Assembly (NCBI GenBank): GCA_038145135.1
Contig: JAYQPD010000004.1
Location: forward strand, 1-46,717
Direction of reading: 5' to 3'
DNA from: a bacterium
GTDB lineage: Bacteria > Patescibacteriota > Minisyncoccia > Phycocordibacterales > UBA918
DNA: 46,717 nt
The notes beneath the pieces were generated by a model. That model was not told where the DNA came from. It did no database searches and saw only the letters and a list, made by a program, of their open reading frames with translations. Shown here in pieces: positions 3,413 to 39,000 of this stretch (the stretch's first letter is position 1; the number at the start of each line of letters is the position of its first letter). The position numbers were made by a program, and so were the translations under genes.

Positions 3413-3470
3413 GTATGCATCAGCGACATACTCTAAAAATAGGTCTGGACACGTGTTAGTATAGTACTCT

Positions 3471-4136
3471 ATGCCACTCGCCCCACAAGCTCGACAGATA
3501 CTCATAGCGGCCGGTATAGGCGCGCTTATCACACTCGTACTTGCCTCAGGGTATATTGCACATCGCCTGAGTCAGTACAAGCTCTACACTGAGAGTATGC
3601 TCGAGAATATAGCTGGGAGCTACCTCAAAGCGGCAGTGAGCGCTGACAGGACCGAGGTAACTGAGCAAAGCCAAGAAGCTGTGTCTGACTGTGCTTCGAG
3701 AGGCACGTTTGACGAATTGCTCTCGCGCCTCCAATCGCTTAGCGCGAGCGAGCGAAAAGAGCTCGATGTACTTTTTCCTCAATGCGCCGACTACTATTAT
3801 CGGCTCAAGCTGTTCCACATCGACCACCTCAATACGTTGCTTCGTGAGTACACACTTACCCTTGAGCATCGAGATCATATCTACGCAGAAGATGATCATT
3901 TTGCAGAAGTACGAAGAGACATGGAGGCGATTATACGTGGCGAAGAGGAACGAAAGACTGCGATGCAAGAACAGATCTCAGTGCAACGAGATATCATTGA
4001 AGCTATGAAACAGGGAAGTATGGACGACCCCGCGCTTACCGATCGCATCGGAGTGGTTAGTGCAGAGCTTGGTACTGCAGATGCTGCAGTCGATAGTGCA
4101 CGAGCACAGCTTTCGAAAGCACTCGAGGGAGAGTAA
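3471..4136 (+). CDS. Hypothetical N-terminally anchored helical/coiled-coil protein
   Basis: 221-aa ORF with one N-terminal TM helix (ILIAAGIGALITLVLASGYIA), then charged helical sequence. TATAGT lies 5 nt upstream of the ATG. No family recognised. Confidence 0.6.
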   Translation: MPLAPQARQILIAAGIGALITLVLASGYIAHRLSQYKLYTESMLENIAGSYLKAAVSADRTEVTEQSQEAVSDCASRGTFDELLSRLQSLSASERKELDVLFPQCADYYYRLKLFHIDHLNTLLREYTLTLEHRDHIYAEDDHFAEVRRDMEAIIRGEEERKTAMQEQISVQRDIIEAMKQGSMDDPALTDRIGVVSAELGTADAAVDSARAQLSKALEGE

Positions 4137-4192
4137 AACACGCCGCTCTGCTATCCCCGTACGGGGTATTTCGGGCGGCACCAGGGTGTTTT
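4135..4192 (+). terminator. Composite GC-rich hairpin directly after the 3471-4136 stop codon
   Basis: aaaacac (4135-4141) pairs with gtgtttt (4186-4192). gccgc (4142-4146) pairs with gcggc (4175-4179). The inner hairpin is cccc-gtac-gggg (4155-4166). Confidence 0.55.
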
Positions 4193-4206
4193 GCTAGAAG
4201 AGGAGT

Positions 4207-4235
4207 GGAGAAACATGCTCCCAGCATGTTTCTCC
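4207..4235. terminator. Perfect 13-bp hairpin with a CCC triloop
   Basis: ggagaaacatgct-ccc-agcatgtttctcc. There is no downstream T-run. On the minus strand it reads ..atgctGGGagcat.., the same core as the hairpins at 64-78, 171-188 and 514-528. Confidence 0.4.
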
Positions 4236-4264
4236 CGCGCACTCATTTAGGGCGACTATTCATA

Positions 4265-4291
4265 CCCACCGCAAAGCGGATGGGCATTTTT
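4265..4291 (+). terminator. Rho-independent terminator-like hairpin with T-run
   Basis: cccaccgc-aaa-gcggatggg (one bulged A), followed by ca-ttttt. Confidence 0.6.
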
Positions 4292-4512
4292 CTCGCCTGT
4301 CAGTAAACTGCATTTTTGTTCGTCCGTTTGATTTGGCAACGTATTCGCTCCTAGCGGACGACAAGAACGACCCATCCATTCGATAGAAGAAGTGGCAAGT
4401 TTTGCTATCCACGCCCGCATACAGATCCGAATTAAGGAGAACGCTGAGGGGTGGTATGCTAGAAGAGCGGAGATACCAAGATGTTCTCGTCTTCCGTTTG
4501 TATAATTACATC

Positions 4513-5268
4513 ATGCAGCGTTACCTCGAGGAACTGAAGCGTAGGATCCGCATACGAAAGCACAAGGTGACCACGCTCCACTATATGTTTCCGCTCATGG
4601 CGGCGACTTTCGGTATACTTGGTGCCACCTACCTGGCTGACGTTTCCTCTTCATATGTCATTTTGACCCCGAATCCTACCTACGTAGAGGCAGGTGATTC
4701 TGTTGAGGTGATCGTAGAGGCTGTCGCGCACATCCCGGTCAATACCGTCGATATCGAAGTGGCCTTTCCTTCAGATCTTAAAGTGACCGGTGTTGAAACT
4801 GGTGGTTCTGTCATTACGCTCTGGACCACCGAGCCAAAACCTGAGGGAAATAAGGTGGTGTTACGAGGCGGTGTCTATCGAAAGGGCTTCATTGGGCGTC
4901 ACACGATCGCACGCATTAATGCAAAGGCAGTAACTGCTGGAAATGCCGATGTACTTGTCAGAAACAGCATCTTTCTTGCAGGGGACGGAAAAGCAACCCC
5001 GATCGCTATTAACTCATCAGATAATCAAAAGGCAGCGATACAAATAGGTACCGCCACTGGTGTAGCCGGACACACCACAGCACTCACCGGTAAGGTCGCG
5101 GTATCAATAATTACAGATATCGATGGTGATAAAGATGTCGATTTCAACGATATACAGGTATTTATGAACGCGTGGAGGACTGGTATAGCTATCTACGACT
5201 TTAGTGGCGATGGAAAAATGACCTTCAGAGACTTTGCGATCATCCTTGCCGATGCGTTCTTCAAATAG
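4513..5268 (+). CDS. Membrane-anchored protein with a cohesin-like domain and a C-terminal dockerin-like EF-hand pair
   Basis: TM helix MFPLMAATFGILGATYLA. Cohesin-like VILTPNPTYVEAGDSVEVIVEAVAHIPVNTVDIEVAFPSDLKVTGVE..LWTTEP. Two Ca-loop-like segments, DIDGDKDVDFND and DFSGDGKMTFRD, each followed by a short helix. Start chosen at ATG 4513 (TATAAT 4501-4506 plus 6 nt). Alternatives are ATG 4456 and the track's TTG 4402. Confidence 0.7.
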   Translation: MQRYLEELKRRIRIRKHKVTTLHYMFPLMAATFGILGATYLADVSSSYVILTPNPTYVEAGDSVEVIVEAVAHIPVNTVDIEVAFPSDLKVTGVETGGSVITLWTTEPKPEGNKVVLRGGVYRKGFIGRHTIARINAKAVTAGNADVLVRNSIFLAGDGKATPIAINSSDNQKAAIQIGTATGVAGHTTALTGKVAVSIITDIDGDKDVDFNDIQVFMNAWRTGIAIYDFSGDGKMTFRDFAIILADAFFK

Positions 5269-5496: not shown

Positions 5497-5904
5497 ATGG
5501 CTAAAAACAAAGATATATTTGAGATAGCTGAATCTGAGATCCCAGATGGCTTTTTGACACTGAAAGAAGCTGCTGCGCTTACCAAATATACCCCCGATTA
5601 TATTGGCCAGTTGGTGCGCTCCGGCAAGATAGAGGGGCGACAGATATATAGCAATGTTTCTTGGGTCACGAGTGAGGCATCGCTCCGTGAATATCTTGGG
5701 TCAAAGGGTAAGGACGCACCGCTCACCGAGATGCCACATGCTGATCTCCCAGAGTTTGCACGTCCCCTTCTGTATATCGTCATCGGCTGTTCTGTCTTTT
5801 TTTTGATCATCCTGATCCACGTGCTTTCAGTTTCAATTGACCACCTGATCACTTCTTCGTATGAGGACGATGTCCCGGCAGTAACTACTTCTCTTGGCCT
5901 ATGA
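5497..5904 (+). CDS. Membrane-tethered helix-turn-helix (excisionase/MerR-like) protein
   Basis: LTLKEAAALTKYTPDYIGQLVRSGKIEGRQ resembles the HTH of the excisionase/MerR superfamily. C-terminal TM helix LLYIVIGCSVFFLIILIHVLSV. The stop overlaps the next start (ATGA at 5901-5904). Confidence 0.65.
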   Translation: MAKNKDIFEIAESEIPDGFLTLKEAAALTKYTPDYIGQLVRSGKIEGRQIYSNVSWVTSEASLREYLGSKGKDAPLTEMPHADLPEFARPLLYIVIGCSVFFLIILIHVLSVSIDHLITSSYEDDVPAVTTSLGL

Positions 5905-7925
5905 CTCGCATTCGTACCACTACTCGATCGAACAGAAGAGACACCATTCACTTGGCACGTACTTCTTCTGCACGTGGTTCTAATGCATCCTTCTCTTCCA
6001 GAACGCTTTCATCATCTCGTACCTCATATGTCTCATTTTGGTTTGCGCTACTATTAACCCTTTCTTTTTTGCTCTCTCCTGTCTCAGATGCGTATGCTGC
6101 TGCTTCTGACGTGGTAAGTGATGAGACACAAACTGATGCTGTAGTGGAGAATGACCCTGTTGAAGAGAGTGTTGTCTCTGTAGCAGCTGCAGAACCTGCT
6201 GTTGAAGAGGTAGATTCTCCTACTGATGAGGTGTCAGCGGATGAATCTCCAGTAGTAGATGATGTAGTAGGTGAAACTTCACAATCACCTGAAAATGAAG
6301 ACCCTCAGAGTGAAGAAGTACTAATAAACACGGTGGGTGATGTGACTACTTCAGAGTCTGTTACTTTGGAACCACTAGGCACTGAAGTACCAGAACAAGA
6401 GACTCTAGTTGCTGATTCAGCTTCAACAACACCTGAAGTGACGGTGTCTACCGATGAGTCAGTACCCACTATGGGTTCGACTACAGACACTGACCGAACG
6501 GCAAGTACTGAGAACACTGATGCTGAAGATTCTTCCCTTAACGATGCGATCCTAAACGAGAGCCCATCAGCGCCAGAGGTGCTTGGAACATCGACTACCG
6601 AAACTAATGTCAACGAACCCACTGTGGTCCCCGATACTGTTGCTTCAAACGAGGTGATCGTTCCCACACCACCATTGCCGGAAGAGGTCGTGGCGACTAC
6701 AAGTGACATTGTGCTTACAGACGACACTGCATCAACTACCGATGATGCTGCATCATCTACTGAACCGCTCCCGTTTGTGATCAATAACATTGTGAGCGAC
6801 AACCGTATTACTTTTGGCACTAATGAATGTGTACCGGTCGGTGGTGGAGCATTCCATTGTGTTGAACGCGATAAGGCGACCGAAGCAGTCGGCGGAGAGA
6901 ACTCACCGGTATTTTCAGCCCCGGATAAAGATGGTGACCTTGAGATCTACATAAAGGAGAATGGTACATTCCGTGCACTCACCAATAACCTGGTTGACGA
7001 TGATGCGCCGGCACTCGACTCTCGTGATGGGTACATCGTGTGGCAGTCACTCATCGATGATCGGTATCAGATCATGAGGTATGACCCAAAGACAGAAGCG
7101 GTAACTCAGTTGACCCACGGATCTGTGAACAGTATGGAACCAGCGGTCTATGAGGGCGAGGTGGTATATCAAGCTTGGCGTGGAAACGACTGGGATATTG
7201 TGCTCTCTGATGGTGACCATGAGGAAGTACTCACCGATAACGATACCCATGACATTGCGCCTTCGATAACAGAGGATTACATCATGTGGCAATCTGACGA
7301 GGAGGGTGAGTGGGTGGCTAAAGTTTACGACCGAAAAACGAAGGATATTGAGACAGTTCATGGCGTGAAGGGGGGTAACGTTGAAAACCCACGGATGGTA
7401 ATGGTGTTCGATAGCCGTGCAGAGAATGGGGATGTGAAGACCATGGGGTACGACCTCAAGCGAGGGGAGCTGGTTCCGCTTGCCGCAGTGCCTACACCAC
7501 TTCCGCGTGAGATACCGGTACCTGAACATCAAGAAGAAGAGAAGGCGTTGATACAAGCACCGACCACTACTCGTATCGAGACAAAAGCAACCACCACACC
7601 TGATGTTTCAGGAGCTGGAGGTGACCCCGATCCCGAACCAGCCCCACGTGATACCGTGGTTGAAGATGGAGCATCAACTACTCCTGCAGTTTCAGACAGT
7701 GTGACTGATGTTGATATGCGTCCAACTACTACACAACAAGATGAATCTGCTGACCTAACGATCGCGGGAGTGACTGAGGGGGCGACAGATACGTTCGAGG
7801 CTGAACTGACACTTGATCTGTCGACACCTACAGACGAGGTCGAACCGCCAGTTCCTGATCTGGTGATCGAGTCGGTACCAGTGAGTGAATATGTTTCGAC
7901 CACAACTTCAGAGACTGGTGAATAG
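5901..7925 (+). CDS. Membrane-anchored, highly acidic Thr/Ser/Glu/Asp-rich protein with a TolB/PD40-like beta-propeller region
   Basis: Arg/Ser-rich N-terminus, TM helix FWFALLLTLSFLLSPV, and about 230 aa of acidic low complexity. Repeated blades follow (..DGDLEIYIKENG.., ..DGYIVWQS.., ..GEVVYQAW.., ..EDYIMWQSD.., ..WVAKVYD..), then an acidic tail. Confidence 0.65.
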   Translation: MTRIRTTTRSNRRDTIHLARTSSARGSNASFSSRTLSSSRTSYVSFWFALLLTLSFLLSPVSDAYAAASDVVSDETQTDAVVENDPVEESVVSVAAAEPAVEEVDSPTDEVSADESPVVDDVVGETSQSPENEDPQSEEVLINTVGDVTTSESVTLEPLGTEVPEQETLVADSASTTPEVTVSTDESVPTMGSTTDTDRTASTENTDAEDSSLNDAILNESPSAPEVLGTSTTETNVNEPTVVPDTVASNEVIVPTPPLPEEVVATTSDIVLTDDTASTTDDAASSTEPLPFVINNIVSDNRITFGTNECVPVGGGAFHCVERDKATEAVGGENSPVFSAPDKDGDLEIYIKENGTFRALTNNLVDDDAPALDSRDGYIVWQSLIDDRYQIMRYDPKTEAVTQLTHGSVNSMEPAVYEGEVVYQAWRGNDWDIVLSDGDHEEVLTDNDTHDIAPSITEDYIMWQSDEEGEWVAKVYDRKTKDIETVHGVKGGNVENPRMVMVFDSRAENGDVKTMGYDLKRGELVPLAAVPTPLPREIPVPEHQEEEKALIQAPTTTRIETKATTTPDVSGAGGDPDPEPAPRDTVVEDGASTTPAVSDSVTDVDMRPTTTQQDESADLTIAGVTEGATDTFEAELTLDLSTPTDEVEPPVPDLVIESVPVSEYVSTTTSETGE

Positions 7926-7983: not shown

Positions 7984-10900
7984 ATGCGAAAGATATATAG
8001 TTTCGCGCGCTTTTTTGTGTCACTTACTGTGATGAGTGTACTGGTATTTTGGAATGTGTTCTCAGTACCATTTTCACCACTTCCATTTGGCCCGAAGGTT
8101 GCAGAGGCAGCACAGGCAAGTATTGATACAACGGCAAACTCGAATGGGAGTATGCAACTGCATGCAGGTCCACAGACGGTGTTCACGAGTGATCAGACTG
8201 GTTATAAATTCTATGTGGACTCTGGCGGTGATTGTGTGTACTCAAAGACGACCAACGGCGGTACTTCGTGGAATACTCCGGTCCAGATCGACTCACAGAC
8301 AGACTGTATCGGGATTGCGGTATGGTATGACAAGTGGACACCGAACGACACTGGGACAACGATCCATATTGCTACGATCGACTCATCAAGTAACAATGAC
8401 AACATCTTTTATAACGCACTCGATACCACGACCGATACACGACTTACCGGTGCGGCTGCGATCAATACCGACCCAGGCAACGTGCAGACCTACACGCTTG
8501 TAGCTGGCGCGAACTATCCTTCGATCACCAAAGCGACCAATGGAACACTCTATGTATCAGTCGATGACCGTACTGACTCAGCGGTGCTCCGCTGCTCTAC
8601 CACGTGTGGTACGGGAACCAACTGGACTGAAGCAGGAACGAGTCCTCAGGATGCACAAAACGACTTCTCAATACTTGTCCCATTGGTGAGTGGTAACGTG
8701 ATGATCATCAATCGTGACATTTCTGCGGGTGTGATCCGCTCAAAGATCTGGTACAACTCGATCAGTGCGTGGACAACAGCGTGGACCACTATCGATGCTG
8801 CGGCGACCGATAACGGCACGTATCCAGTCGGTCTTTCAGCCACTATCTCAACTTCAACTTCAGCTGCAACGAGTACAGTGTATTTGGCCTACACTGCTGA
8901 TAACACAACGCTGGGCACCGATGACGATGTGCGCGTCGGCGTGTATTCGAATTCCTCGTGGTCTACGGTAACACCGGTCCTTAATGACGCCAAAGGCATC
9001 ACCAGCGCTTCTATCGGACGTGACGAGAATTCAGGATCGATCTATCTCGCATATACTGCGCGCACAACGCCCGGTACCGCGAGTACGGGTAACGTGTACT
9101 GGAAGGTGAGTACCTCATCTATCAGTTCTTGGTCTGCTGAGCAGGGCCCGATCAATACTTCGTCAAACGACATGTATGGTGTTGATCTCAATGCACGTAA
9201 CAACCACCGCATTTACGCAACATGGTATGGAAGCACCGGAGCCACGGTGTTTGGTAATACGGTCGCAGACTTGACCTACGGCGTCATGGTATCGACGACC
9301 AAGTCACAAAATACCGAGGTGAGCGCCCCAAAGACCAACTACTACATCGGCGGTGTGTTCTCACTTCAGGAGCAAGTGAGTTCGCGCAACGTAACTGGTA
9401 TTACGATCGGAGAGAATGGGACCATCAACGGTACCTCAAGTGTTGCCAATATCAAGCTCTACTATGAAATGGACAACACCTATCCGTATGATTGTGCGAG
9501 TGTGCAGTATGATGGGGGCGGTGCAGAGTCCCAGTTTGGTGGTACCGATGCCAATGGATTCTCTGGAGCAGACGGCATCTCGTCATTCACCGGCTCGAGC
9601 GTGACCGTCTCGACCACGAGTGCTATGTGTGTATATGTGGTCATGGATATTTTGGACGCTGCGGTTGATGGTGCGACTCTCAATGTCTATGTGCCAACAC
9701 CATCGACCGGTGTAACCGTTACTGATGGTGGTGAAGTGACCCCAACTACAGACCTCGATATGAGTAGCTTTACCACGGTACGAAATGACTACCTGGTACA
9801 GACTGGTTACCACTGGAGGAATGACGACAACACTGAACTCCTTGCAACATCAAAGACCGGTGGCATTGAGAACACTGCGCTTTCTGCGCTTCAACAGGGA
9901 AGTCAGGCACGTCTTCGTGTTCAAATATCGAACACAGGTGGCACCACCTCGCCCTCATCACAGTTTCGCCTTGAATACAGTCGCGCGACCACTACCTGCA
10001 GCGCTGCCTACCTCTGGACCGATGTTGGTTCCACCACTGACGATTGGGATATGTATGATTCGATCCATCTCACCGACAACGACAGCACGAATGATATTGG
10101 AACTTCAACCGGTGGCGTTACGAATCCTATTGGAAAGACATTCCTCACCACTAACTATGGCGTGAAAGATGCCTCATCGACGGCAACTGCGGTGACGCTA
10201 ACCTCAAGTCAGTACACTGAGCTTGAATACTCGGTGGTCCCAACCGCATTCGCAACCGAAGGTAACACGTACTGTTTCCGCGTAACGAACGCCGGCACCA
10301 CACTGCAAAGCTACTCACAGTACCCCCGTGCCACCATCTCTGCTGACGTTAACGTGAGCGCGACCGGTACTGCGGCAACCTCAAAAGATATTCCGACCTC
10401 GAATGTGTACTTTGGAGGAGCGTACGTTATTAAAGAGAATACTTCCTCGCGTAGTGTGACCTCGATCACACTCACAGAGAACGGTACTGTCGATGCCCAA
10501 AACGACTTAAGCAACATCAGGATCAAATACGATCTCGACACCTCAAACCCTTACGATTGTGGATCAGAGTCGTATAGTGGCAGTGAGCTGCAGTATGGTG
10601 CTACGAGTAGCAGTTTCTCCAGTGCAAACGGTACATCCACCTTTACGGGCTCGGTCAGCATTACCACGACACAAACACTCTGTCTCTATGTGGTAGCTGA
10701 TATCAATGAGACTGCTAATAATGGTGATACGGTCAACATAGTCGTTAACAATCCATCGAATGATGTTGTGGTAAGTGGTGGCGGGTCAGTCTCGCCGTCG
10801 GCAACTCAGGACATCACGGGGTCAACAACCCTTGCCGGTGCTATCCTCTCGCAGACGCACTACCATTGGAGAAACAACGACGGTGGCGAATCGACCTCGA

Positions 10901-13900
10901 CCTCGGCAACGCTCGGAGTAGAAGACACACCACTCGACTCACTCCCCACAGATACTCCGATACGACTTCGTCTTCAGGTATCAAATAGTGGCTCGACCTC
11001 GACACCATCAACTGCGTATCGACTCATGTATGGCGCGAAAGTGACAACCTGTAGTGCAGTAGGTACCTGGACGGATGTCGGGTCCGCGACAGATGCGTTC
11101 GATATGTACAACACGATCAATCTCACTGACGGAAACAACACTACAGATATCGGAACCAGTACTGGCGGTGTCTCAAATCCAGGTGGAAAAACACTTCTCA
11201 GTTCTAACTTTGGTGTCAAAGATACTTCTTCATTGGTGGCATCCACTTCGCTCACCACCTCACAGTTCACCGAACTGGAATTTTCGATCGTGAGCTCGAG
11301 CACCTTTGCTGGCTTTGATGTTCCGTACTGCTTCAAGGTAGTGAAGGGGACCGGGTCTGATCTGGATACGTACAGTTCCTATGCAGAGCTCACGACCGCA
11401 CCAAAACGTGACTTCAAGGTCCAGCGCAACTTTGTCACGATCCCTGCCTTTGCCTCATCTGCAACTATTACTGCTGGCTCTAACTACGACGCACCGTCTG
11501 CGTCAACGAGCGCGTTCATACGCATCACGAACTCAAGTCAAACCGGCGCGGGAAACAGTACCGGTGGTGGTAACCAGAACGCTGACGACGCGACTGCGTA
11601 CATTTCGGATCCATCGAATATCAAGAACAGTATAACGTTTGTGCGTTCTTCAACTGCGAACACTGAGACGCGCGTGTACTGGGAGATCGTTGAGTACATT
11701 GGGTCTGCGGGAGGCGATAATGAGATCATAGTGCGCGATCAAAAGACACTTACCTATGGCACTACCGCTACACAAGCGACAGGTACACCGTCAGCTGGTG
11801 TTGTGGATGATGCGGATATCGTGGTGTTCATCACTGGGCAGGGTTCACCCGATACGACGCGTACCAACTACGAGTCATTGCAGTCTACCTCTGCGTGGGA
11901 TAGTGCGACCGATCAACCAGCGTTCACACGCGGTGATCATGGTAATGATGCGGTGACCGTAAGCTATGCGGTCATTGAGTTCATTGGTCTCAACTGGCAG
12001 ATCCAGCGTGTTGAACATGCTTATGCAGCAGCCGGTATCACTGAAACAGAAAACATTACTTTGGTTAATGACCGCGCACATACGTTCTTGCACACACAAA
12101 AACGTGTCGGTGCGGGACTTAACGGTGTAGATGAGTTTGGTGCTCAGGTGACGCTCTCGTCAGTCGGTGTGGTTTCGTTCTGGCTTGAGCCGGGAGCGGG
12201 CACTACAACCGGACAGACCTCCGTTGCATGGGTCATCGAGAATTTGCAAACAGGCACGGGGCAGATGCTGGTCACACGCTCGGGGGCCGACATCACTGGC
12301 GGTACCTCTCCGCTCACCGTTTCGATCCCGATCGAGACGACTGTCGACGGTGTCGATAACACGTCGATCTTTGTCAACGATTCGAGTTCTGGTACCGGTA
12401 CCACATTTCCACAACCAATAGTTGGCGCGATGATCTCATCGACCACGCACTACATACTTTGGAGAAGCGATACCGGTTCGACACTCACCTATAAGACCGA
12501 GGTGGTTGAGTGGCCAGTACTCGCGCTCACGTACCAACAGAACTATTACCGACTCTATGTCGATAGTAATGACATCACCCCAACCGATCCATGGCCAGTT
12601 GGCGGGACCGCCGACCTGGGAGAGAACACGGCGCTCACCGCAGCAGACGAGCCACTTAAAGAGGGAGACGTTATTCGTATCCGTATGTCCCTGATCGTGA
12701 AGAACGCGACCATGCCGTCACTCACGCAGGCATTTCGACTGCAGTATGCTGCTCGTGATACGACGTGTAGTGCGGTTGCGAGTTCCGGTTGGTACACTCT
12801 TGGTGATACCTCATCGAGTACTATCTGGCGAGGCTACAATAGCGGCGGTATCACCGATGGTGCGACCATCAGCCCACTCACACTTTCTCCCTCAGATGTT
12901 GGTGGAACAATCGAGGAGACAAACGACTCAGCGGTGAACCCAAATAGCGCGGATGAGCTTCAGGACGTTGAATATGATTGGGTGGTGGAGCAAAACGGTG
13001 CACTCGGTGAAACAACATACTGTTTCCGCATGGTGCGCAACGACGGCACAGAACTCCAAGCATATAATTATTATCCACAGATACGTACTGCCTCGTTCAA
13101 CCCCGCTACCCAGAACTGGCGTTGGTATGGAGATGAAGGAAGTGAGACGCCCGCCACGTCACTGGCAAGCGAGAATACCTCACCTATCGATGTCGTGAAT
13201 CAGGATGTCATCAAGCTCCGCGTGACCGTCAAAGAACTCAATAACATCGGTCGCGATGACATACGATTTAAACTTCAGTATGACGAGACTGCAAATTTCT
13301 CTGACCCCATTGATGTGGTTGCATCGTCGACCTGTACTGCAACTTCTACCTGGTGTTATTCCGATGGAGGTGGCGCCGACAACGGTGTGATCTCAAGTTC
13401 AACACTTTCTGACGCCGATTCGTGTATTGCAGGCGTAGGCACGGGGTGTGGTACCCACAATGAATCATCAGTGTACCTGACTGGTTTCAGACAAGAGGGG
13501 AGCGCTGCCACAGAGTACGAGTTCACGATACGTCATGCCGGAGCTCGCGTAGGTGCCGTGTACTACTTCCGGCTGTATAGTTTGACCCACAGTATCCCAG
13601 TACCCACCAACAGTGGGGAGACCTATCCGTCACTCATTACCCAAGGTGGAGATCTGATGTTCACCTTGACCGGTGTTGCAACTTCGACGGTTGTCGAGGG
13701 AGTAACGACCGACGTTGGCACGACACCGACCACCATACCGTTCGGAGATTTCTTGGGGAACGCGACCAAGACCGCAGCGTACCAACTTGAGGTGAATACC
13801 AACTCGACCGAAGGTTACTCTGTGTTCCTCTACACCCGTGCGGGTCTTTTGTCAGCAAGTGGTGATCAGATCGATCCGATCACTGCGTCTAATACAGCAC

Positions 13901-14166
13901 CGCAAGCATGGGACTCAGCATGTATCGGCAGTTCGCTCGGGTGTTTCGGATACCACGCTGGTGATGATACGCTCTCTGGAGGTTCGACGCGCTTTGCTCC
14001 TGACAATACGTTCGCCGCTCTTGAGTCGACACCGCGTGAAGTGGCGCATGCCGATATTCCTATCGATGATATTGTGACCACGATATATCGGATCCGTATA
14101 AAGGACGGCCAGCCTGCGGGTATTTATGAGACAAATCTGGTGTATATTGTAGTACCATTCTTCTAG
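7984..14166 (+). CDS. 2060-aa modular secreted surface protein: Asp-box-like propeller region, duplicated beta-sandwich modules, C-terminal WxL-like segment
   Basis: Signal/anchor FFVSLTVMSVLVFWNVF. Asp-box-like TTNGGTSW. Tandem X-Y modules (X: ..NIKLYYEMDNTYPYDC.. / ..NIRIKYDLDTSNPYDC..; Y: YHWRNDDNTE...LRVQISNTG...FRLEY...TYCFRV, four copies). C-terminus reads LMFTLTGV..IPFGDF..YQLEVNTNSTEGYSVFLY...PAGIYETNLVYIVVPFF. Start moved to ATG 7984 (aaggg 8 nt upstream); the track start at 7885 overlaps the previous CDS. Confidence 0.75.
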   Translation: MRKIYSFARFFVSLTVMSVLVFWNVFSVPFSPLPFGPKVAEAAQASIDTTANSNGSMQLHAGPQTVFTSDQTGYKFYVDSGGDCVYSKTTNGGTSWNTPVQIDSQTDCIGIAVWYDKWTPNDTGTTIHIATIDSSSNNDNIFYNALDTTTDTRLTGAAAINTDPGNVQTYTLVAGANYPSITKATNGTLYVSVDDRTDSAVLRCSTTCGTGTNWTEAGTSPQDAQNDFSILVPLVSGNVMIINRDISAGVIRSKIWYNSISAWTTAWTTIDAAATDNGTYPVGLSATISTSTSAATSTVYLAYTADNTTLGTDDDVRVGVYSNSSWSTVTPVLNDAKGITSASIGRDENSGSIYLAYTARTTPGTASTGNVYWKVSTSSISSWSAEQGPINTSSNDMYGVDLNARNNHRIYATWYGSTGATVFGNTVADLTYGVMVSTTKSQNTEVSAPKTNYYIGGVFSLQEQVSSRNVTGITIGENGTINGTSSVANIKLYYEMDNTYPYDCASVQYDGGGAESQFGGTDANGFSGADGISSFTGSSVTVSTTSAMCVYVVMDILDAAVDGATLNVYVPTPSTGVTVTDGGEVTPTTDLDMSSFTTVRNDYLVQTGYHWRNDDNTELLATSKTGGIENTALSALQQGSQARLRVQISNTGGTTSPSSQFRLEYSRATTTCSAAYLWTDVGSTTDDWDMYDSIHLTDNDSTNDIGTSTGGVTNPIGKTFLTTNYGVKDASSTATAVTLTSSQYTELEYSVVPTAFATEGNTYCFRVTNAGTTLQSYSQYPRATISADVNVSATGTAATSKDIPTSNVYFGGAYVIKENTSSRSVTSITLTENGTVDAQNDLSNIRIKYDLDTSNPYDCGSESYSGSELQYGATSSSFSSANGTSTFTGSVSITTTQTLCLYVVADINETANNGDTVNIVVNNPSNDVVVSGGGSVSPSATQDITGSTTLAGAILSQTHYHWRNNDGGESTSTSATLGVEDTPLDSLPTDTPIRLRLQVSNSGSTSTPSTAYRLMYGAKVTTCSAVGTWTDVGSATDAFDMYNTINLTDGNNTTDIGTSTGGVSNPGGKTLLSSNFGVKDTSSLVASTSLTTSQFTELEFSIVSSSTFAGFDVPYCFKVVKGTGSDLDTYSSYAELTTAPKRDFKVQRNFVTIPAFASSATITAGSNYDAPSASTSAFIRITNSSQTGAGNSTGGGNQNADDATAYISDPSNIKNSITFVRSSTANTETRVYWEIVEYIGSAGGDNEIIVRDQKTLTYGTTATQATGTPSAGVVDDADIVVFITGQGSPDTTRTNYESLQSTSAWDSATDQPAFTRGDHGNDAVTVSYAVIEFIGLNWQIQRVEHAYAAAGITETENITLVNDRAHTFLHTQKRVGAGLNGVDEFGAQVTLSSVGVVSFWLEPGAGTTTGQTSVAWVIENLQTGTGQMLVTRSGADITGGTSPLTVSIPIETTVDGVDNTSIFVNDSSSGTGTTFPQPIVGAMISSTTHYILWRSDTGSTLTYKTEVVEWPVLALTYQQNYYRLYVDSNDITPTDPWPVGGTADLGENTALTAADEPLKEGDVIRIRMSLIVKNATMPSLTQAFRLQYAARDTTCSAVASSGWYTLGDTSSSTIWRGYNSGGITDGATISPLTLSPSDVGGTIEETNDSAVNPNSADELQDVEYDWVVEQNGALGETTYCFRMVRNDGTELQAYNYYPQIRTASFNPATQNWRWYGDEGSETPATSLASENTSPIDVVNQDVIKLRVTVKELNNIGRDDIRFKLQYDETANFSDPIDVVASSTCTATSTWCYSDGGGADNGVISSSTLSDADSCIAGVGTGCGTHNESSVYLTGFRQEGSAATEYEFTIRHAGARVGAVYYFRLYSLTHSIPVPTNSGETYPSLITQGGDLMFTLTGVATSTVVEGVTTDVGTTPTTIPFGDFLGNATKTAAYQLEVNTNSTEGYSVFLYTRAGLLSASGDQIDPITASNTAPQAWDSACIGSSLGCFGYHAGDDTLSGGSTRFAPDNTFAALESTPREVAHADIPIDDIVTTIYRIRIKDGQPAGIYETNLVYIVVPFF

Positions 14167-14169
14167 CGT

Positions 14170-15201
14170 ATGTCCCTCAACCTCCCACTACGTCATGTGC
14201 GCATCAATCTAGTATTCCTAGGAATTTTTCTCCTTCTGCCATTCAAAGCGGTGTTTGCGGACACACATACTGTCTCGCCGCTCATTGTCGACTTCAAAGC
14301 CGAAGCACGCACGATCGAGCATCGCACCATCACAGTGACCAATGGTGATTCAGGTGGCCGCGTCGACATTTTTCCGTTGGTCAACAATGTAACTGTTGGG
14401 GAAAGTGGCGGTGTCGAGGAGTTCATTTCTCCCACGATGACCGACCGAAGTACTAATCCGTCGAGTTGGATCGAGATACCAAGAAGAGCACTTGAACTTA
14501 AGCCTGGTGAAACAGGTACGGTCGACTTTACGCTTCGGATCGCACCGAAGGTGATGCCGGGTGTGTACCATGTACTTATCTCATTCGCAGCCGGACATAA
14601 CCAAGTTGAAGCCGAACGTAAGGTGGCTGCTGGGGTAGCCCCCGGTGTGATGGTCAATATCACCATTGAAGACAGATCGGTTGAGCTCCTCTCACTCACA
14701 CGCTTTTTGGTCGATCGCTTCATTGTTTCAAACGACAACGAAGCGATCTCATACGTTGTTGAAAATACTGGTGATGATCAACTGATCCCTTCTGGCTCCG
14801 TCATTATCTACAATCATCGCGGGGAGGAGGTTGGCTCAGTACCGGTCAATGCAGAAGCGGCAACAGTCCACCCAGGTGAGACGCGTACCTTCACCACAGC
14901 ACTCCCTATCGATGGGCTGGTCGGAAAGTATAAAGCGTACCTTGCGCTCAATTATGGCAATACACAGCGCGCACAACTTCAAGATACGACCTTCTTCTAT
15001 GCACTGCCATGGAAGAAACTCCTCGTCCTGTTCGGAGGAATACTCCTGGTCGCACTCGCACTCGCACTTCTCGCACATAAGCGTTTTGCTGGTGACGAAG
15101 AGGACTTCATTGATGATGACGGCGAGTATCTACCACTACACGTTCGCGAGACCGTATCGCAACCAGTACATCACGATATCGATATGAAACCGCGCATATG
15201 A
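14170..15201 (+). CDS. DUF916/DUF3324 (CscA)-like cell-surface protein with a C-terminal TM anchor
   Basis: Signal peptide; TVSPLIVDFKAEARTIEHRTITVTNGDSGGRVDIFPLVNN..; ..LKPGETGTVDFTLRIAPKVMPGVYHVLISF; second beta-domain ..VHPGETRTFTTALPIDGLVGKYKAYLAL; TM helix LLVLFGGILLVALALALLA followed by HKRF. Confidence 0.65.
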   Translation: MSLNLPLRHVRINLVFLGIFLLLPFKAVFADTHTVSPLIVDFKAEARTIEHRTITVTNGDSGGRVDIFPLVNNVTVGESGGVEEFISPTMTDRSTNPSSWIEIPRRALELKPGETGTVDFTLRIAPKVMPGVYHVLISFAAGHNQVEAERKVAAGVAPGVMVNITIEDRSVELLSLTRFLVDRFIVSNDNEAISYVVENTGDDQLIPSGSVIIYNHRGEEVGSVPVNAEAATVHPGETRTFTTALPIDGLVGKYKAYLALNYGNTQRAQLQDTTFFYALPWKKLLVLFGGILLVALALALLAHKRFAGDEEDFIDDDGEYLPLHVRETVSQPVHHDIDMKPRI

Positions 15202-16853
15202 CCATACGATCACCCATCAAATACTTTTCGTACGTCCTCATACTGTTTGCGGTCCTGTTTCTAGTATGGACTGTTTCGCTTCCTCTTGCCCTTGCACAGG
15301 AGCGCCAGTCGCTCTCGGTGACCCCGCCCTTTGCGCAGATGTCACTTACACGAAGTGGTGCGTTTAAGAGCTACGTGAAGATCATCAACCCAAACAGTTT
15401 TCCGCTTACTGTCTACGTGACGCCAGTCAACTTCGCAACAGCAGATGAAGCTGGGCATCCAAAATTCATTCCGCTCATTGATGAAGAGGCCGACAAAGGA
15501 ACGTTCGCCGGGTGGATCAAGGTGACGAGCGAGCCGATCACTATTGCTCCGGAAACCTCAAAAGAAGTCGATTACACGATCACAGTACCTGAAGACGCGT
15601 CGCCCGGAGGGCACTTCGCTGCACTTCTGATCGGCACACAGCCACCCAAGATCGACGGTGAAGCCGCAGCCCTCAAAACATCACAGGTGGTGACTGCGCT
15701 CCTTATGGCACGCGTTGAGGGAGAGGTGGTAGAGGCGGGGAGTATTCGAGAGTTTTCAGTCAGCCACTCCTTTGCGGGAACGCCACGTGCTGATTTTTCA
15801 CTGAGGTTTGAAAACACCGGTAATGTGTACTTACAACCGCAGGGCGATATTACGGTCTTCAATATGTGGGGCACAGAGCGCGGATATATCCCAGTCAATC
15901 AAAAGACCAACTTTGGAAACGTTCTCCCGAACAGTATCAGAAAGTTTGAATTTTCATGGGAAGGAGAACCGTCCCTCACCGACATAGGAAGGTATAAGGC
16001 AGTCGCGAGCTTGGGATTTGGTGAGAATGGAAGACAGTCGGTCGGTCGGATCGTATATTTTTGGGTCATACCAGTGAAGGCGACATTGATCACACTCTGT
16101 GTGCTCGTTCTGTTCGCACTTTTCATTACGTTCTCCATCCGCCTCTACATTCGCCATGCACTTAAGCTTGCTGGCTACGAGGAACGTGTGCAACGTTCAC
16201 AACCCCCTCTAGATAGACGATCGCGTCCCGAACCAACCCGCACAGTCCGACATGAAGCACGTATCACCAGAACGGTCATGACTGCACCACTTCGTGAAGG
16301 TGTGCTCGATCTTCGTAAGGCGGTGAGAAAACAGGATGGTGTAGTGAGTGAAGCACGCGGCATCTTGGGATTTGTGTCGGAGTATCGTATGTTCTTGGCT
16401 GCACTCTGTATCGCACTACTCGGGATCGCACTCATAGTCTGGTATGTCCTTGATGCGCGGAGTGCGAATAGGCCATACGAGATCACTGTGAAGAATGATG
16501 GCGGTGCGACCACTATCACCTCAGAAGAGATGGAGTCTGCTCGAAGTACGAATGAGCTTCAGAGAACTAAGACTGAGGTCAAGTCTGACGTTGCCATTGT
16601 GAACGCTAGTGGACTATCTGGTACAGCGTCCCAGGTAGTCGAACGTTTGAAACAGTCTGGATATAGCGTCACAGATGTATCGACCGATGCTGATGGAAGG
16701 GACTCAAGTGTGATCATTTTCAACGCTGGCGTGGCTCGCGAGGCGACCGCACTCTCGGAGTTGCTTGACGGCATGATACTCTCAGCACGTCCACAGGGGG
16801 AAGAAACCGATCCAAGTATACTGATTATCATCGGTCGCGACCGTGCGAATTGA
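15198..16853 (+). CDS. DUF916/DUF3324 (CscA)-like surface protein fused, past two TM helices, to a LytR_C-like domain
   Basis: LSVTPPFAQMSL..FKSYVKIINPNSFPLTVYVTPVNFAT..ITIAPETSKEVDYTITVPEDASPGGHFAALLIG. DUF3324-like ..NVLPNSIRKFEFSW..IGRYKAVASL. TM helix LITLCVLVLFALFITFSI and a second TM helix FLAALCIALLGIALIVWYV. LytR_C-like VAIVNASGLSGTASQVVERLKQSGYSV..VIIFNAG..ILIIIGRD. ATGA overlap with the previous CDS. Confidence 0.7.
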   Translation: MTIRSPIKYFSYVLILFAVLFLVWTVSLPLALAQERQSLSVTPPFAQMSLTRSGAFKSYVKIINPNSFPLTVYVTPVNFATADEAGHPKFIPLIDEEADKGTFAGWIKVTSEPITIAPETSKEVDYTITVPEDASPGGHFAALLIGTQPPKIDGEAAALKTSQVVTALLMARVEGEVVEAGSIREFSVSHSFAGTPRADFSLRFENTGNVYLQPQGDITVFNMWGTERGYIPVNQKTNFGNVLPNSIRKFEFSWEGEPSLTDIGRYKAVASLGFGENGRQSVGRIVYFWVIPVKATLITLCVLVLFALFITFSIRLYIRHALKLAGYEERVQRSQPPLDRRSRPEPTRTVRHEARITRTVMTAPLREGVLDLRKAVRKQDGVVSEARGILGFVSEYRMFLAALCIALLGIALIVWYVLDARSANRPYEITVKNDGGATTITSEEMESARSTNELQRTKTEVKSDVAIVNASGLSGTASQVVERLKQSGYSVTDVSTDADGRDSSVIIFNAGVAREATALSELLDGMILSARPQGEETDPSILIIIGRDRAN

Positions 16854-16885: not shown

Positions 16886-17377
16886 TTGATCCCATTCACT
16901 ATGAACCAGCGTGCACTTATCATAGCCGTCGTCGTCTTCGTGCTCGTCGTCGCCGGTATGTTTGGTTATGCGTATATGAAGAAGCAAGAGCTTGCGCCAG
17001 CACCAACTCCATTTGTCGAGACCCCAACCCCTGAAGATGAGTCACCGATGCGGGTTGACGCAGTCCACTTCTTTAATGATGGGCAGCACACCATCGTCGG
17101 GGAGTTATTGCTTCCAACCCCGTGTCATCTCATCAAAGATGATGTTACCGTTGGTGAGTCAATGCCGGAGCAGGTAAAGATCGCGCTTTCACTCATCAAC
17201 AATGCAGACACCTGCGCGCAGGTCCTCACGCCGCAACGCTTCAGTGTGTCGTTCACTGCCTCACAGTATGCTGTCATTACCGTGACTGTAGATGGCAAAC
17301 CAGTGACTCTCAATCTTCGAGATGCCGGGCCTGATGAAAGCCCCGACACGCTTGATGAATTCTTCTTCAAAGGGTAG
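16886..17377 (+). CDS. Hypothetical N-terminally anchored small protein
   Basis: TM helix ALIIAVVVFVLVVAGMFGYAY. TTG at 16886 has aaagga 7 nt upstream and an extended -10-like tgaTAGAAT at 16856-16864. An alternative ATG lies at 16901. Confidence 0.55.
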   Translation: MIPFTMNQRALIIAVVVFVLVVAGMFGYAYMKKQELAPAPTPFVETPTPEDESPMRVDAVHFFNDGQHTIVGELLLPTPCHLIKDDVTVGESMPEQVKIALSLINNADTCAQVLTPQRFSVSFTASQYAVITVTVDGKPVTLNLRDAGPDESPDTLDEFFFKG

Positions 17378-19269: not shown

Positions 19270-19314
19270 CAGCGTGACATTTTCAGTGGGGGTGCAGATG
19301 ATACTATATATGTG

Positions 19315-22300
19315 ATGAGGGAAAAGTATCTGCGGATACATCTTTTTTTGGTGATATTCTTTCTTTTCCTGTGGGTTGTTGTTCCCGGATCCTCTACCTT
19401 CGCTGCGATCAACGAACAGATCAATTTTTACGGAACACTTAAAGATACAAGTGAAAATCCACTCACCGGCACCTACGATATGGTGTTTCGTTTTTATGAT
19501 GCACCAACCGGCGGAACACTTCTCGATACGAGTACACACACGAGCGGCAATGGCAACCCGGTAACGGTAACCAATGGCGAGTTTTCGGTCGTACTTGGTT
19601 CGGGGACCGGCAATGCGCTTGATGGTATTGATTTTTCGAGTAACTCAATCTACGTAGGCCTTACGATCGGCGCTGATTCAGAGATGTCACCCCGTGAGCG
19701 TCTCGCTGCTGTGCCGTATGCGTTCAATAGCGATAAGGTGGACGGATACGACGCAGTCGATCTCCTTCGTGGAAATGCGAGTGGTACTATCTCAGCTTCA
19801 GAAACCAGTACGCTCCTTACGATCACACAAGCAGGTTCAGGCGACATCCTGAACTTGATCGATGGCTCGACAGAAGTATTCACTGTTTTGGATGGTGGCA
19901 ACGTTGGTATCGGTTCATCTTCACCATCTACACGCTTGAGTGTAGCTGGAAGTGCATACATCAACGGCGGTCTCACCATCACAAACATCACCGCGACCGG
20001 CACCTCAGCACTCACCACTCTTACCTCAACCTACGCATCGACCACAAACCTCACCGTCGCTGGAACGCTCTACGATTCCGCAAATTCAGCCGGCACCAAC
20101 GGCTACGTCCTCCAAACGACTGGTAGTGGTGTCGCCTGGGTCGCGACCTCTTCACTAGGACTTGGGGGCGCAGGAGCATCTACCTACCTCGCTCTCACTG
20201 ACACCCCAGGTTCCTTCACTTCATATTCGATCCCGTATACCAACAGCGGCGCAACAGCACTTCTCCACTCATCAACTTTCGTCTTCGATGGCACCCGTCT
20301 TGGTGTAGGAACGAGTACACCATACTGGACCGCTCAAGTCGCCTCAGCGACCACACCCTATCTCGCCCTCACCAACATGGCAGGCAGTTCAGGCAATAAA
20401 CACTGGCTCCTCTCTAACAGTGGTGACGGCATCTTCCGTATCGGAAGGGCTACTGATGCACTCACCAGTACCTCAACTGCACTTCTCATGGATCTGGTTG
20501 GCCACAATTTCATGGTGGATACTCAATCGGGTACTACATCGAGCACCTTCAATATCGGAATTGGATACCAAGCTCTTTTGAGTAATGTCTCAGGTCACAA
20601 TAACGTTGCTGTCGGACAACAAGTATTAAAACTTAACTCAACAGGATTTGATAACGTGGGAGTTGGTGACACTGTCTTGTGGAAGAATACCAGCGGAAGT
20701 AACAATGTTGCTGTCGGTCTGACTTCACTCATCAATAACACAACAGGAAACTTCAATACAGCACTCGGCGCGTACTCAGGTATCAATATCACAACTGGTC
20801 ATTCGAATGTGATCATTGGCGATAATTCGTACGGTGAGAATCTAACTACTGGCTCGGGTAATATTGGACTCGGCACACATACATACTTCCCAAGCGCGAC
20901 CTCTGACCTCCAGCTCGTTATCGGCAACCTCATTTACGGTACACTCCCCGCAACGTCAACATCCTTCCAACTTCCAACGACTGGGGCGGTAGGAATTGCA
21001 TCAAGCTCGCCGCGCGCTCTGCTTGCTGTGCATGCAAACTACGGCTACGCTGAAAGCTCACTTTTTGAGATAGGTTCGTCGACAGCTTCTGCTACCACAA
21101 CCCTTTTTAGGATCTCCAACACCGGTGTCATTACCTCGAACGCAGCTGCAACGTCAACATTTGCGGCGGGTATCAATGCGACCGGTCTTCAAAGTACCTA
21201 CCTCCGTCTTTCGGGAGCCCTCTACGATTCCGCAAATTCAGCCGGCACCAACGGCTACGTCCTTCAAACGACTGGTAGCGGTGTCACCTGGGTCGCCACC
21301 TCATCACTTGGCTTCGGGTCAGGGAACGGTACCGTGAATACTGGTCTCACCGGATACTTCGCGTACTATACTGCTGACGGTACTACGGTAGATGACCAGG
21401 CCACCCTATACCTCTCAGGTTCTAACATAGGCATCGGTACCACAACCCCGACCTCACTCCTCACGGTATATGGAGACGTTGACGCCAGTGCACCAAACGC
21501 CGGGTATAAGATCCAAGGACAACGAGTGCTCTACGCCTCGAGTACCAATCTCTCAACAGTGGTAGGTATTAGTGCGGGATCACTTTTGGATACAAGTGGG
21601 TTACGCAATACTGCAGTGGGATACGAAGCACTCACTGCTGCAACTTCTTCCGACAACAATACTGCGATCGGCTATCAGTCGATGTACTCAAACACCTCAG
21701 GGTTCTACAACCTTGCTGCAGGTGCGTGGTCACTTTACTCGAATACAGGCGGAAGGTGGAATACGGCACTTGGCGCCGGATCATTGACCAACAACAACAC
21801 TGGTGACGACAATGTTGCTGTTGGCGCCGACGCACTTTCCTATAGCACAACTGGCGTTGGCAATACAGGTGTGGGATCGGGCGCTTTATTTAAAAATATT
21901 TCTGCTACTAGTTCTGTTGCGGTCGGTTACTACGCCGGGTTCGGTTCTGGCAGTTCATACTCTAATCAGGGAGGTACCTTTATTGGTTACAAGTCAGGCT
22001 ACAATTCAAGCGACAACTCAGACTACAACACCTTCCTCGGGTACCAGAGTGGATACAACGTCACTACTGGCTCAAACAACATCCTGATCGGTGCTGCTAC
22101 TTCATCAACAGCAATTGCGAATCTCACGACTGGTTCACAGAATATTCTGATCGGCAACAACATTTCACTCCCATCTGCAACCGCAAACGGTCAGCTCAAT
22201 ATTGGAAATCTGATATACGGCACTGGTCTCGATGGAGTTGGCTCAACGCTTTCTACAGGAAACATAGGCATCGGTACCACTTCACCACATGCTCGACTCT

Positions 22301-38882: not shown

Positions 38883-39000
38883 CAGAACAGCGTGTATAAG
38901 AACTTTCTTCGAAACATCGTTGGTGGAGTCATGAACATCCTCTGGTGTGTTCTCCACAATCTCGCGGTGCCGCTCAAGATCTACTGCGTATAATGTGACT

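Follow-up and report, generated by a model that had tools for sequence, protein, structure and literature searches.

A giant surface protein and a membrane-anchored, chaperone-like protein pair in a patescibacterial genome: a probable variant of the Pam-type system

Bacteria of the Candidate Phyla Radiation (CPR) live attached to host cells, and little is known of how their very large surface proteins are displayed. A stretch of 46,717 nucleotides from one such bacterium (GenBank assembly GCA_038145135.1, contig JAYQPD010000004.1; Patescibacteriota, Minisyncoccia), referred to throughout as 'the window', harbors three adjacent plus-strand open reading frames (ORFs) that encode a giant surface protein and two smaller membrane-anchored proteins, termed here P2 and P3. 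These genes probably represent a version, found in Paceibacteria, of the Pam-type system of CPR bacteria, which would assemble surface proteins by donor-strand complementation. The relevant features (in window positions; TM, transmembrane; AF2, AlphaFold2; Ig, immunoglobulin) are as follows.

7984..14166, plus strand: giant surface protein, 2060 amino acids, with an N-terminal signal or TM segment (threonine 14.5%, serine 11.3%)
9334..11286, plus strand: two tandem repeat units of ~350 amino acids inside the giant, found by segment-versus-whole BLASTP
13654..13674, plus strand: candidate linker or donor strand LMFTLTG, just upstream of the pilin-like domain (AF2 strand E31-37; column conservation)
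13726..14163, plus strand: C-terminal Pam-pilin-like (truncated Ig-like) domain, ending at the giant's last residue with VPFF
14170..15201, plus strand: P2, 343 amino acids, with a signal peptide, two beta-sandwich domains, a C-terminal TM helix at ~284-302 (nucleotides 15019-15075) and a short acidic cytoplasmic tail
15198..16853, plus strand: P3, 551 amino acids, with a signal peptide and a WxLIP/PapD-like two-domain ectodomain at residues 36-290 (nucleotides 15303-16067)
15636..15716, plus strand: candidate donated strand of P3 domain 1, residues 147-173 (...TSQVVTALLMARV), a low-confidence loop and the strand that follows it
16074-16169, plus strand: first TM helix of P3, residues 293-324 (AF2 model), followed by a strongly basic cytoplasmic loop
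16386-16457, plus strand: second TM helix of P3, residues 397-420 (AF2 model)
16590-16841, plus strand: extracellular LytR_C domain of P3 (PF13399, E 2.6e-10)

The three ORFs are tightly packed, as had been stated in an earlier reading of the sequence alone (the sequence-only reading): the gene for the giant, which begins at an ATG at 7984 within a longest frame that opens at a GTG at 7885, terminates at 14166, and is separated by a 3-nucleotide gap from the gene for P2, which in turn overlaps the gene for P3 by 4 nucleotides. The motifs quoted in that reading are all present in the translations (PKVMPGVYHVLISF, PEDASPGGHFAALLIG and NVLPNSIRKFEFSW..GRYKAVASL for the two smaller proteins, and the string LMFTLTGV...YQLEVNTNSTEGYSVFLY...PAGIYETNLVYIVVPFF for the C-terminus of the giant), and the architecture that it ascribed to both P2 and P3 (a signal peptide, two beta domains and a C-terminal TM anchor) was recovered in an AF2 model of P3, at a predicted local distance difference test (pLDDT) score of 82, and for P2 by its alignment to P3.

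The C-terminal ~180 residues of the giant correspond to a genuine conserved domain. An exhaustive HMMER search, conducted with a trimmed 15-sequence profile of that region, recovered 1754 representative clusters at E<=1e-3, with 881 of them at E<=1e-10. In nearly all of the best 150 matches the domain reaches the last residue of the protein or stops only a few residues short of it; its carriers range from 79 to 5845 amino acids in length (more than 1000 in 71 of 149), and 141 of 149 terminate in F or Y, usually in the form [VT]P.[FY]. The NCBIfam model NF058581 (CPR_Pam_pilin_C) aligns to residues 35-180 of the domain region across model positions 3-148 of 148, with an E value of 5.2e-9 and a score of 36.3 bits that falls below the curated cut-off of 55; among 18 diverse members of the family, the same model ('Pam pilus system pilin subunit') matches 13, and the model for PamT (NF058579) matches 5. 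In Foldseek comparisons, the nearest folds to an AF2 model of the domain (pLDDT 80) are the TasA fibre (8aur, E 4e-4), followed by FimA, FimG, CsuA/B and other chaperone-usher pilins; the assembly of all these proteins relies on donor strands. The strand that directly precedes the domain displays the family pattern L-x-F-x-[LI]-x-G, is followed by an irregular loop of ~30 residues, and may, by analogy, be the counterpart of the linker strand found in Pam pilins.

The Pam system itself was described by Troman et al., who determined the structures of two filaments from Ca. Mycosynbacter amalyticus, a CPR bacterium, and established, by cryo-electron microscopy (cryo-EM), that Pam pili are real filaments (bioRxiv 10.64898/2026.03.03.709456). 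The corresponding pilins possess a truncated Ig-like C-terminal domain, which in the PamA (55 kDa) and PamB (39 kDa) type accompanies a nine-strand N-terminal sandwich. Further genes of the operon specify PamE, the tip subunit PamT (which has no linker), PamR (an anchor that resembles RbmA) and a pair of PapD/FimC-like chaperones, PamC and PamD. These two differ from classical chaperones in that they carry a C-terminal TM helix and operate with no usher, and AlphaFold predicts that a strand of theirs enters the open barrel of the pilin (bioRxiv 10.64898/2026.03.03.709456). The locus matches the logic of that operon, in that a pilin-type domain is accompanied by a pair of TM-anchored, PapD/FimC-like proteins, and P2 and P3 resemble PamC and PamD in both fold and architecture.

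P2 and P3 are paralogs, as indicated by BLASTP (1e-17) and by an hhalign comparison of P2 with the P3 family (99.1% across 290 columns, the TM helix included), with P3 being far more conserved. Its ectodomain returned 487 database matches at E<=1e-3, the best 120 of which are 50-61% identical to it; among the matches listed, all that carry a source name are from Patescibacteria (Pacebacteria, Minisyncoccia, Paceibacterota), and none is annotated by Pfam. Invariant motifs of the family include VTPP, PGGH, IREF, RFEN.GNV, NMWG, FGNVLP.S.R.F.F.W, G.Y.A and FWV.P. Most homologs of P3 are 430-450 amino acids in length, terminate ~30 residues past the second TM helix and lack LytR_C, which was found on P3 in only a subset of loci: the window, L011 (7657-9303) and a frameshifted long-read contig, L010 (~10909-11151). 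P3 also displays a weak match to the envelope-integrity protein Cei. Sequence searches of the PDB with P2, P3, the giant and the family profiles returned nothing useful, and a match to an FNIP-repeat structure was rejected as spurious, being caused by the NVLPNS motif.

Both sequence and structure place the pair in a known superfamily. PF06030 (WxLIP_PGBD, formerly DUF916) matches P3 at an E value of 8e-4 and a score of 19.9 bits, below the gathering cut-off of 27.3, and does not match P2; a similar sub-threshold match recurs in 21 of 24 P3 homologs, the best at 1.7e-5. PF11797 (DUF3324), searched at E<=0.1, matched none of the 24 CPR members and only a relative from Paenibacillus (E 0.021), and the second Ig-like domain of P3 is present structurally despite the lack of such a match. 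Searches of plasmids by tblastn with the P3 ectodomain identified Deinococcus proteins (6e-8), an Embleya locus (2e-8) and a Paenibacillus protein, as well as proteins from Clavibacter, Streptomyces, Arthrobacter and Cellulosimicrobium that are annotated as 'DUF916 domain-containing protein'. The Clavibacter protein scores 35 bits on PF06030, which is above the cut-off, shares the motif VPEDA.PG.H with the P3 family, and aligns to that family by hhalign at 96.7% (E 3.8e-10) across 266 columns that span both domains and the TM helix; the corresponding values for the Deinococcus and Paenibacillus relatives are 96.9% and 88%. When the P3 model was compared with the PDB using Foldseek, the first match was WxLIP from E. 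faecium (9i1y, E 1e-10) and the fourth was WxLIP bound to a long WxL protein (9i25_C), followed by the chaperones CfaA, CsuC, Caf1M and DraB at target-normalised TM-scores of 0.5-0.57. P2 and P3 belong, remotely but genuinely, to the DUF916/WxLIP superfamily, whose members are shaped like PapD-type chaperones. Of the DUF916 and DUF3324 pattern assigned by the sequence-only reading, the first half stands and the second was not detected, and the profile and structural comparisons that it had recommended yielded remote homology to DUF916.

The relationship of chaperone-like proteins of the P2/P3 type to DUF916/WxLIP was not found in a literature search and is absent from the Pam preprint, which mentions no WxL, DUF916, Paceibacteria, Parcubacteria or adhesins (bioRxiv 10.64898/2026.03.03.709456). 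That link and the giant-cargo architecture appear to be new, and the WxLIP homology of these membrane-anchored proteins is the most interesting by-product of the analysis.

The surroundings of several plasmid-borne relatives were also recorded. On a plasmid of Deinococcus sp. NW-56 (L005, 4944-10517), a DUF916-like protein lies between small secreted proteins and a protein of 1013 amino acids that combines SdrD_B and CarboxypepD_reg domains with an extended, beta-rich central region, an arrangement that, in this diderm, looks like a chaperone-subunit-usher cluster. On pAZOPL1 of Paenibacillus lautus (L007, 6788-12200), a P3-like protein of 455 amino acids is accompanied by a 1089-residue RCC1-repeat protein and by a small WxL protein that passes the Pfam threshold. 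DUF916 genes on actinobacterial plasmids (L004, L009 and L008, from Clavibacter, Cellulosimicrobium and Arthrobacter) adjoin genes for secreted proteins of ~170-215 amino acids with a VTVTD.R...GW motif, and often stand beside GH43 or LamG glycoside hydrolases; relatives of those secreted proteins are named WxL domain proteins in UniRef, and WxL/WxLIP pairs are therefore not confined to Firmicutes.

The association of the C-terminal domain with the two chaperone-like genes is widespread. A genome scan identified 58 loci, nearly all of them labelled as Patescibacteria lineages, and local hidden Markov model searches demonstrated that in 45 of 49 assessable loci the next genes after the domain are P2-like and P3-like, in that order, at a median distance of 107 nucleotides. 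This agrees with the proposal of the sequence-only reading that the smaller proteins work together with the C-terminus of the giant encoded before them. Three loci reached through homologs of P3 (L001-L003) display a common gene order (cohesin protein, ~220-residue protein, dockerin-like protein, ~580-residue protein, giant, P2-like protein, P3-like protein, ~160-residue protein, redoxin), in which the giants are 1704-2062 amino acids long and end in the same domain. Within the window, the domain occurs on the 2060-residue protein only, and the chaperone-like profile matches P2 and P3 only. The domain also occurs on carriers of quite different construction: a 256-residue and a 370-residue carrier are each paired with a chaperone-like neighbor (hhalign 98.9%, and 100% at E 4e-40, respectively), and weaker 'second-module' versions of the domain are followed by a third WxLIP-like homolog in 10 of 13 cases. 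Where such second-module carriers were examined (L013, L025), they proved to be PamB-sized proteins of ~370-385 amino acids.

The second module lies downstream of P3, and consists of one or two proteins of that size that end in a diverged pilin-like domain, followed by the third WxLIP-like gene. It is absent from the window, where the ORF for a 163-residue protein, redoxin and GDH stand instead, and was recorded at the following loci.

L025 9353-11658: second-module locus
L026, L028, L031, L036, L042, L050, L057, L062, L065, L068, L072: further second-module loci

If the locus is a Pam-type system, its components might act as follows. The 2060-residue giant would be exported by the Sec pathway and, behind the conserved linker strand, its last ~150 residues would fold into a pilin-type domain, Ig-like but truncated, that leaves a groove open. 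P2 and P3 are type-I membrane proteins, with two-Ig-domain ectodomains that are related to WxLIP/DUF916 and resemble PapD/FimC in shape, and one or the other, or both, would fill that groove with a beta strand. The inserted strand would stabilize that domain and hold the giant at the cytoplasmic membrane, with neither an outer membrane nor an usher being involved. The giant might then remain tethered as an adhesin, or might pass by donor-strand exchange to Pam-type subunits encoded elsewhere in the genome, and the complex would probably be linked to the wall through the second TM helix and external LytR_C domain of P3. Of this scheme, the homologies and folds, the Sec signals, the membrane topology of P2 and P3, the C-terminal position and aromatic end of the pilin-like domain and the close linkage of the genes are observed; strand insertion, the anchoring role and any polymerisation are proposed. 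By analogy with WxLIP and with PamC and PamD, the donated strand may lie within residues 147-173 of P3, in which residues 151-160 are modelled at a pLDDT of 60 and are followed by a strand (E165-173), with L168, R172 and the nearby G175 being conserved.

Several observations weigh against assigning the locus to the Pam system. The Foldseek TM-scores of the C-terminal domain are low (0.3-0.4), and its score on NF058581 (36.3 bits) does not reach the NCBI cut-off of 55. The window encodes only one pilin-like domain, and no PamA/B-type pilin, PamT or PamR. The 58 loci are mostly orthologous and their linkage counts are not independent events, so that the counts overstate independence; the recurrence of the association across differing carrier architectures is the stronger argument. 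Finally, the chaperone role of PamC and PamD is itself only predicted, in an unreviewed preprint (bioRxiv 10.64898/2026.03.03.709456).

The assignment, if correct, extends the description of Pam pili to another CPR class and to a giant subunit architecture. Because it is found in at least 1754 representative clusters, almost always at the C-terminus of its carriers and, in Paceibacteria, adjacent to a highly conserved membrane-anchored pair, there is a strong case for the Pam-pilin-like domain as the chief module by which CPR adhesins are attached. In addition, the sequence and structural ties of P2 and P3 to DUF916/WxLIP suggest that strand complementation is also the working principle of the WxL systems found in lactobacilli, enterococci, listeriae and actinobacteria.

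A broader proposal, which is advanced tentatively, would unite the WxL/WxLIP (Csc) systems, CPR Pam and chaperone-usher pili as a single donor-strand-complementation family, of which the monoderm form employs membrane-anchored chaperones. In Paceibacteria, such a system might serve as a general hanger for giant adhesins (of up to 5845 amino acids), which would be held by a permanent complex of chaperone and pilin domain, tethered to the wall through LytR_C, rather than being built into a filament.

It is also conceivable, albeit unlikely, that the locus encodes a true pilus, in which the giant would be a polymerising or tip subunit of a Pam filament, P2 and P3 would be transient chaperones, and the anchor would be encoded elsewhere in the genome. 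The giant does display the order of a Pam pilin (N-terminal region, linker strand, C-terminal domain) instead of the linker-less order of PamT, many related loci add PamB-sized subunits with a chaperone-like gene of their own, and Pam pili are themselves filaments visible by cryo-EM. However, no second pilin-like domain is found in the 46.7-kb window, and a subunit of 2060 amino acids is far larger than either PamA (55 kDa) or PamB (39 kDa). Moreover, conservation is much stronger in P3 than in P2, and P3 bears a LytR_C domain of wall-binding type; a permanent anchor therefore fits better than a transient chaperone.

The interpretation offered by the sequence-only reading was that of a divergent WxL/Csc complex, displaced from its usual Firmicute context, in which the cargo's WxL domain would have lost its tryptophans and which was possibly acquired from Firmicutes. 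According to published descriptions, a WxL/Csc cluster must contain one or more WxLIPs and two or more WxL proteins, and an LPxTG protein is usually present as well (PMC10599100, PMC9772566). The kinship of P2 and P3 to WxLIP/DUF916 does agree with such a reading, and the small Pfam-passing WxL protein of Paenibacillus likewise has Y for W in both of its motifs (GYTL, FTY), so that literal tryptophans are not required for membership in that family; the last beta-hairpin of the giant's domain (AG.Y...h.Y) also aligns locally with the WxL motif-2 region.

The domain as a whole, however, behaves differently. PF13731 (WxL) matched neither the giant nor any of 18 diverse members when searched at E<=1, nor any of 17 close homologs at E<=10, and hhalign comparisons with WxL sequences (which included the Pfam-passing Paenibacillus protein and 120 actinobacterial and Paenibacillus relatives) gave 2.7% with 5 sequences and 1.2% with 125, with only the last hairpin being aligned. 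The top 50 Foldseek matches of the domain do not include the long-WxL chain of 9i25, and hhalign comparisons with the small partner proteins that adjoin the Clavibacter and Deinococcus DUF916 genes gave less than 1%. On the basis of the Pfam scans, hhalign and Foldseek, the identification of the C-terminal domain as WxL was rejected, and the WxL-like layout attributed to the last ~180 residues gives way to the TasA-like and chaperone-usher pilin-like fold described above. The window contains one candidate cargo domain, and neither a small WxL protein nor the pair of WxL proteins (by PF13731 and two W-x-L motifs) that the cluster definition demands was found in it; likewise, no LPxTG (CscD-type) protein emerged when every window ORF of 100 or more amino acids was scanned with a regex. 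The locus falls outside the published definition. Deep conservation and synteny of the family within Patescibacteria, including its placement beside housekeeping genes and the exclusively CPR origin of the named P3 matches listed, argue against a recent transfer, and the horizontal acquisition from Firmicutes that had been proposed for checking was rejected. A WxL/Csc complex is accordingly quite improbable here. More improbable still is the suggestion that the adjacency reflects conserved gene order only, with P2 and P3 being independent envelope or adhesion proteins (such as wall-integrity factors of the Cei/LytR_C type) that do not contact the giant: P3 does possess LytR_C and a weak match to Cei, but most P3 homologs lack LytR_C, and the adjacency of domain and chaperone-like gene recurs with unrelated N-terminal architectures (256 and 370 amino acids, and giants) and in second modules.

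Outside of its C-terminal domain, the giant displays no Pfam, NCBIfam or PDB sequence match. Its internal repeats are visible by segment-wise BLASTP only, with a self-comparison of the whole protein giving no off-diagonal matches: residues 451-599 are 44% identical to residues 806-950, residues 604-750 are 56% identical to residues 955-1101, and a further copy of the second repeat sub-domain lies at residues ~1544-1626.

The immediate flanks of the locus are occupied by two conserved neighbors.

5901..7925, plus strand: upstream protein of 674 amino acids, in which a TM segment and beta-propeller repeats occur together with a long low-complexity region of acidic character; a conserved syntenic neighbor and a possible member of the system (its counterparts in L001-L003 are 579-585 amino acids long)
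16886..17377, plus strand: downstream TM-anchored protein of 163 amino acids; a conserved syntenic neighbor (157-166 amino acids in other loci)

Further genes of the window encode cohesin- and dockerin-like proteins, a redoxin, GDH, MgsA, an AI-2E transporter, PGA_cap, FKBP, TGT and UvrB, an inventory that is typical of a small CPR genome, and the genome is indeed CPR, as the sequence-only reading suggested; no tRNA or Rfam match, and no RNA gene, was found in the window. Upstream of the locus, at 664-5268, lie genes for two cohesin-like proteins (338 and 586 amino acids), a helical TM protein of 221 amino acids and a dockerin-like protein of 288 amino acids, the order of which is unchanged in L002 and L003 and which may constitute a second surface-assembly module, of the cohesin-dockerin type, beside the Pam-like one; the ORF for the 221-residue protein (3471-4136) was considered as a small WxL protein and rejected because of its helical TM character. 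A small HTH_17/MerR-like gene that may encode a regulator lies upstream of the giant genes both in the window (5497-5904) and in the unrelated locus L013 (10674-10853). A second giant ORF, of 3829 amino acids and with a GTG start, occupies 19312-30801 and is followed by an overlapping ORF of 786 amino acids with a CarboxypepD_reg domain (the pair spanning 19312-33158); a profile search of the window found no Pam-pilin-like C-terminal domain on the 3829-residue protein, and it must therefore be displayed by other means. An overlapping pair of ORFs at 38947-42224 (506 and 586 amino acids) was considered as a possible set of P2/P3 relatives and rejected, being unrelated and displaying no confident family match.

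The locus was compared with several known systems, among them the TasA fibres of Bacillus subtilis (8aur). TasA, which forms a donor-strand fibre in a monoderm, provides the best single Foldseek match of the C-terminal domain, although at a TM-score of only 0.36, and it needs no two-domain chaperone; Peptidase_M73 gave no match, and no SipW-type signal peptidase was found among the window ORFs scanned. The chaperone-usher systems (Pap/Fim, Csu, CFA/I and Caf1) correspond to the locus in the folds of both P3 (CfaA, CsuC, Caf1M, DraB) and the C-terminal domain (FimA, FimG, CsuA/B), as well as in the two-part adhesin design seen in FimH and PapG, in which an N-terminal functional region is joined to a C-terminal pilin domain, and in the C-terminal aromatic residue. 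They differ in that the locus involves no outer membrane or usher (no usher family was found among the Pfam matches of the neighbors) and in that its chaperone-like proteins are anchored in the membrane rather than soluble; Pfam models of the PapD family displayed no significant similarity, with one member matching PapD_N at E 0.028.

The WxL/WxLIP systems (PF13731, PF06030, PF11797; 9i1y, 9i25) share with P2 and P3 the plan of a signal peptide, two Ig-like domains and a TM helix, together with remote DUF916 sequence homology that includes the VP.DA.PG.H motif, and they too place the partner domain at the C-terminus of large, multi-domain surface proteins. According to the published model, a loop of WxLIP becomes ordered in AlphaFold predictions and completes the WxL beta sandwich (PMC10599100), and the candidate loop of P3 (147-173) is found at the corresponding position. 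In contrast, the partner domain at the locus displays no detectable WxL homology, two WxLIP-like genes are present instead of one, PF11797 is undetected, and PF06030 remains below its gathering cut-off.

The closest correspondence is with the Pam system, whose truncated Ig-like pilin domain and preceding linker strand have their candidate counterparts at the C-terminus of the giant, and which likewise possesses two paralogous PapD/FimC-like proteins that each carry a C-terminal TM helix, lacks an usher, places Sec signal peptides on all components and is specific to CPR. The locus differs in that its subunit is a protein of 2060 amino acids with internal repeats rather than a two-domain pilin of 39-55 kDa, that PamA/B/E/T/R genes are absent from the window, that P3 is extended by a further TM helix and an external LytR_C domain, that its neighbors are redoxin, GDH, the AI-2E transporter, TGT and UvrB rather than ATP synthase and CorB, that the NCBIfam score of its domain lies below the cut-off, and that it derives from a different CPR class. 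The locus is native to CPR and probably belongs with the Pam pilus, as a variant made distinct by its giant subunit, the lack of standard pilins in the window, the additional TM helix and LytR_C domain of P3, and its occurrence in another CPR class.

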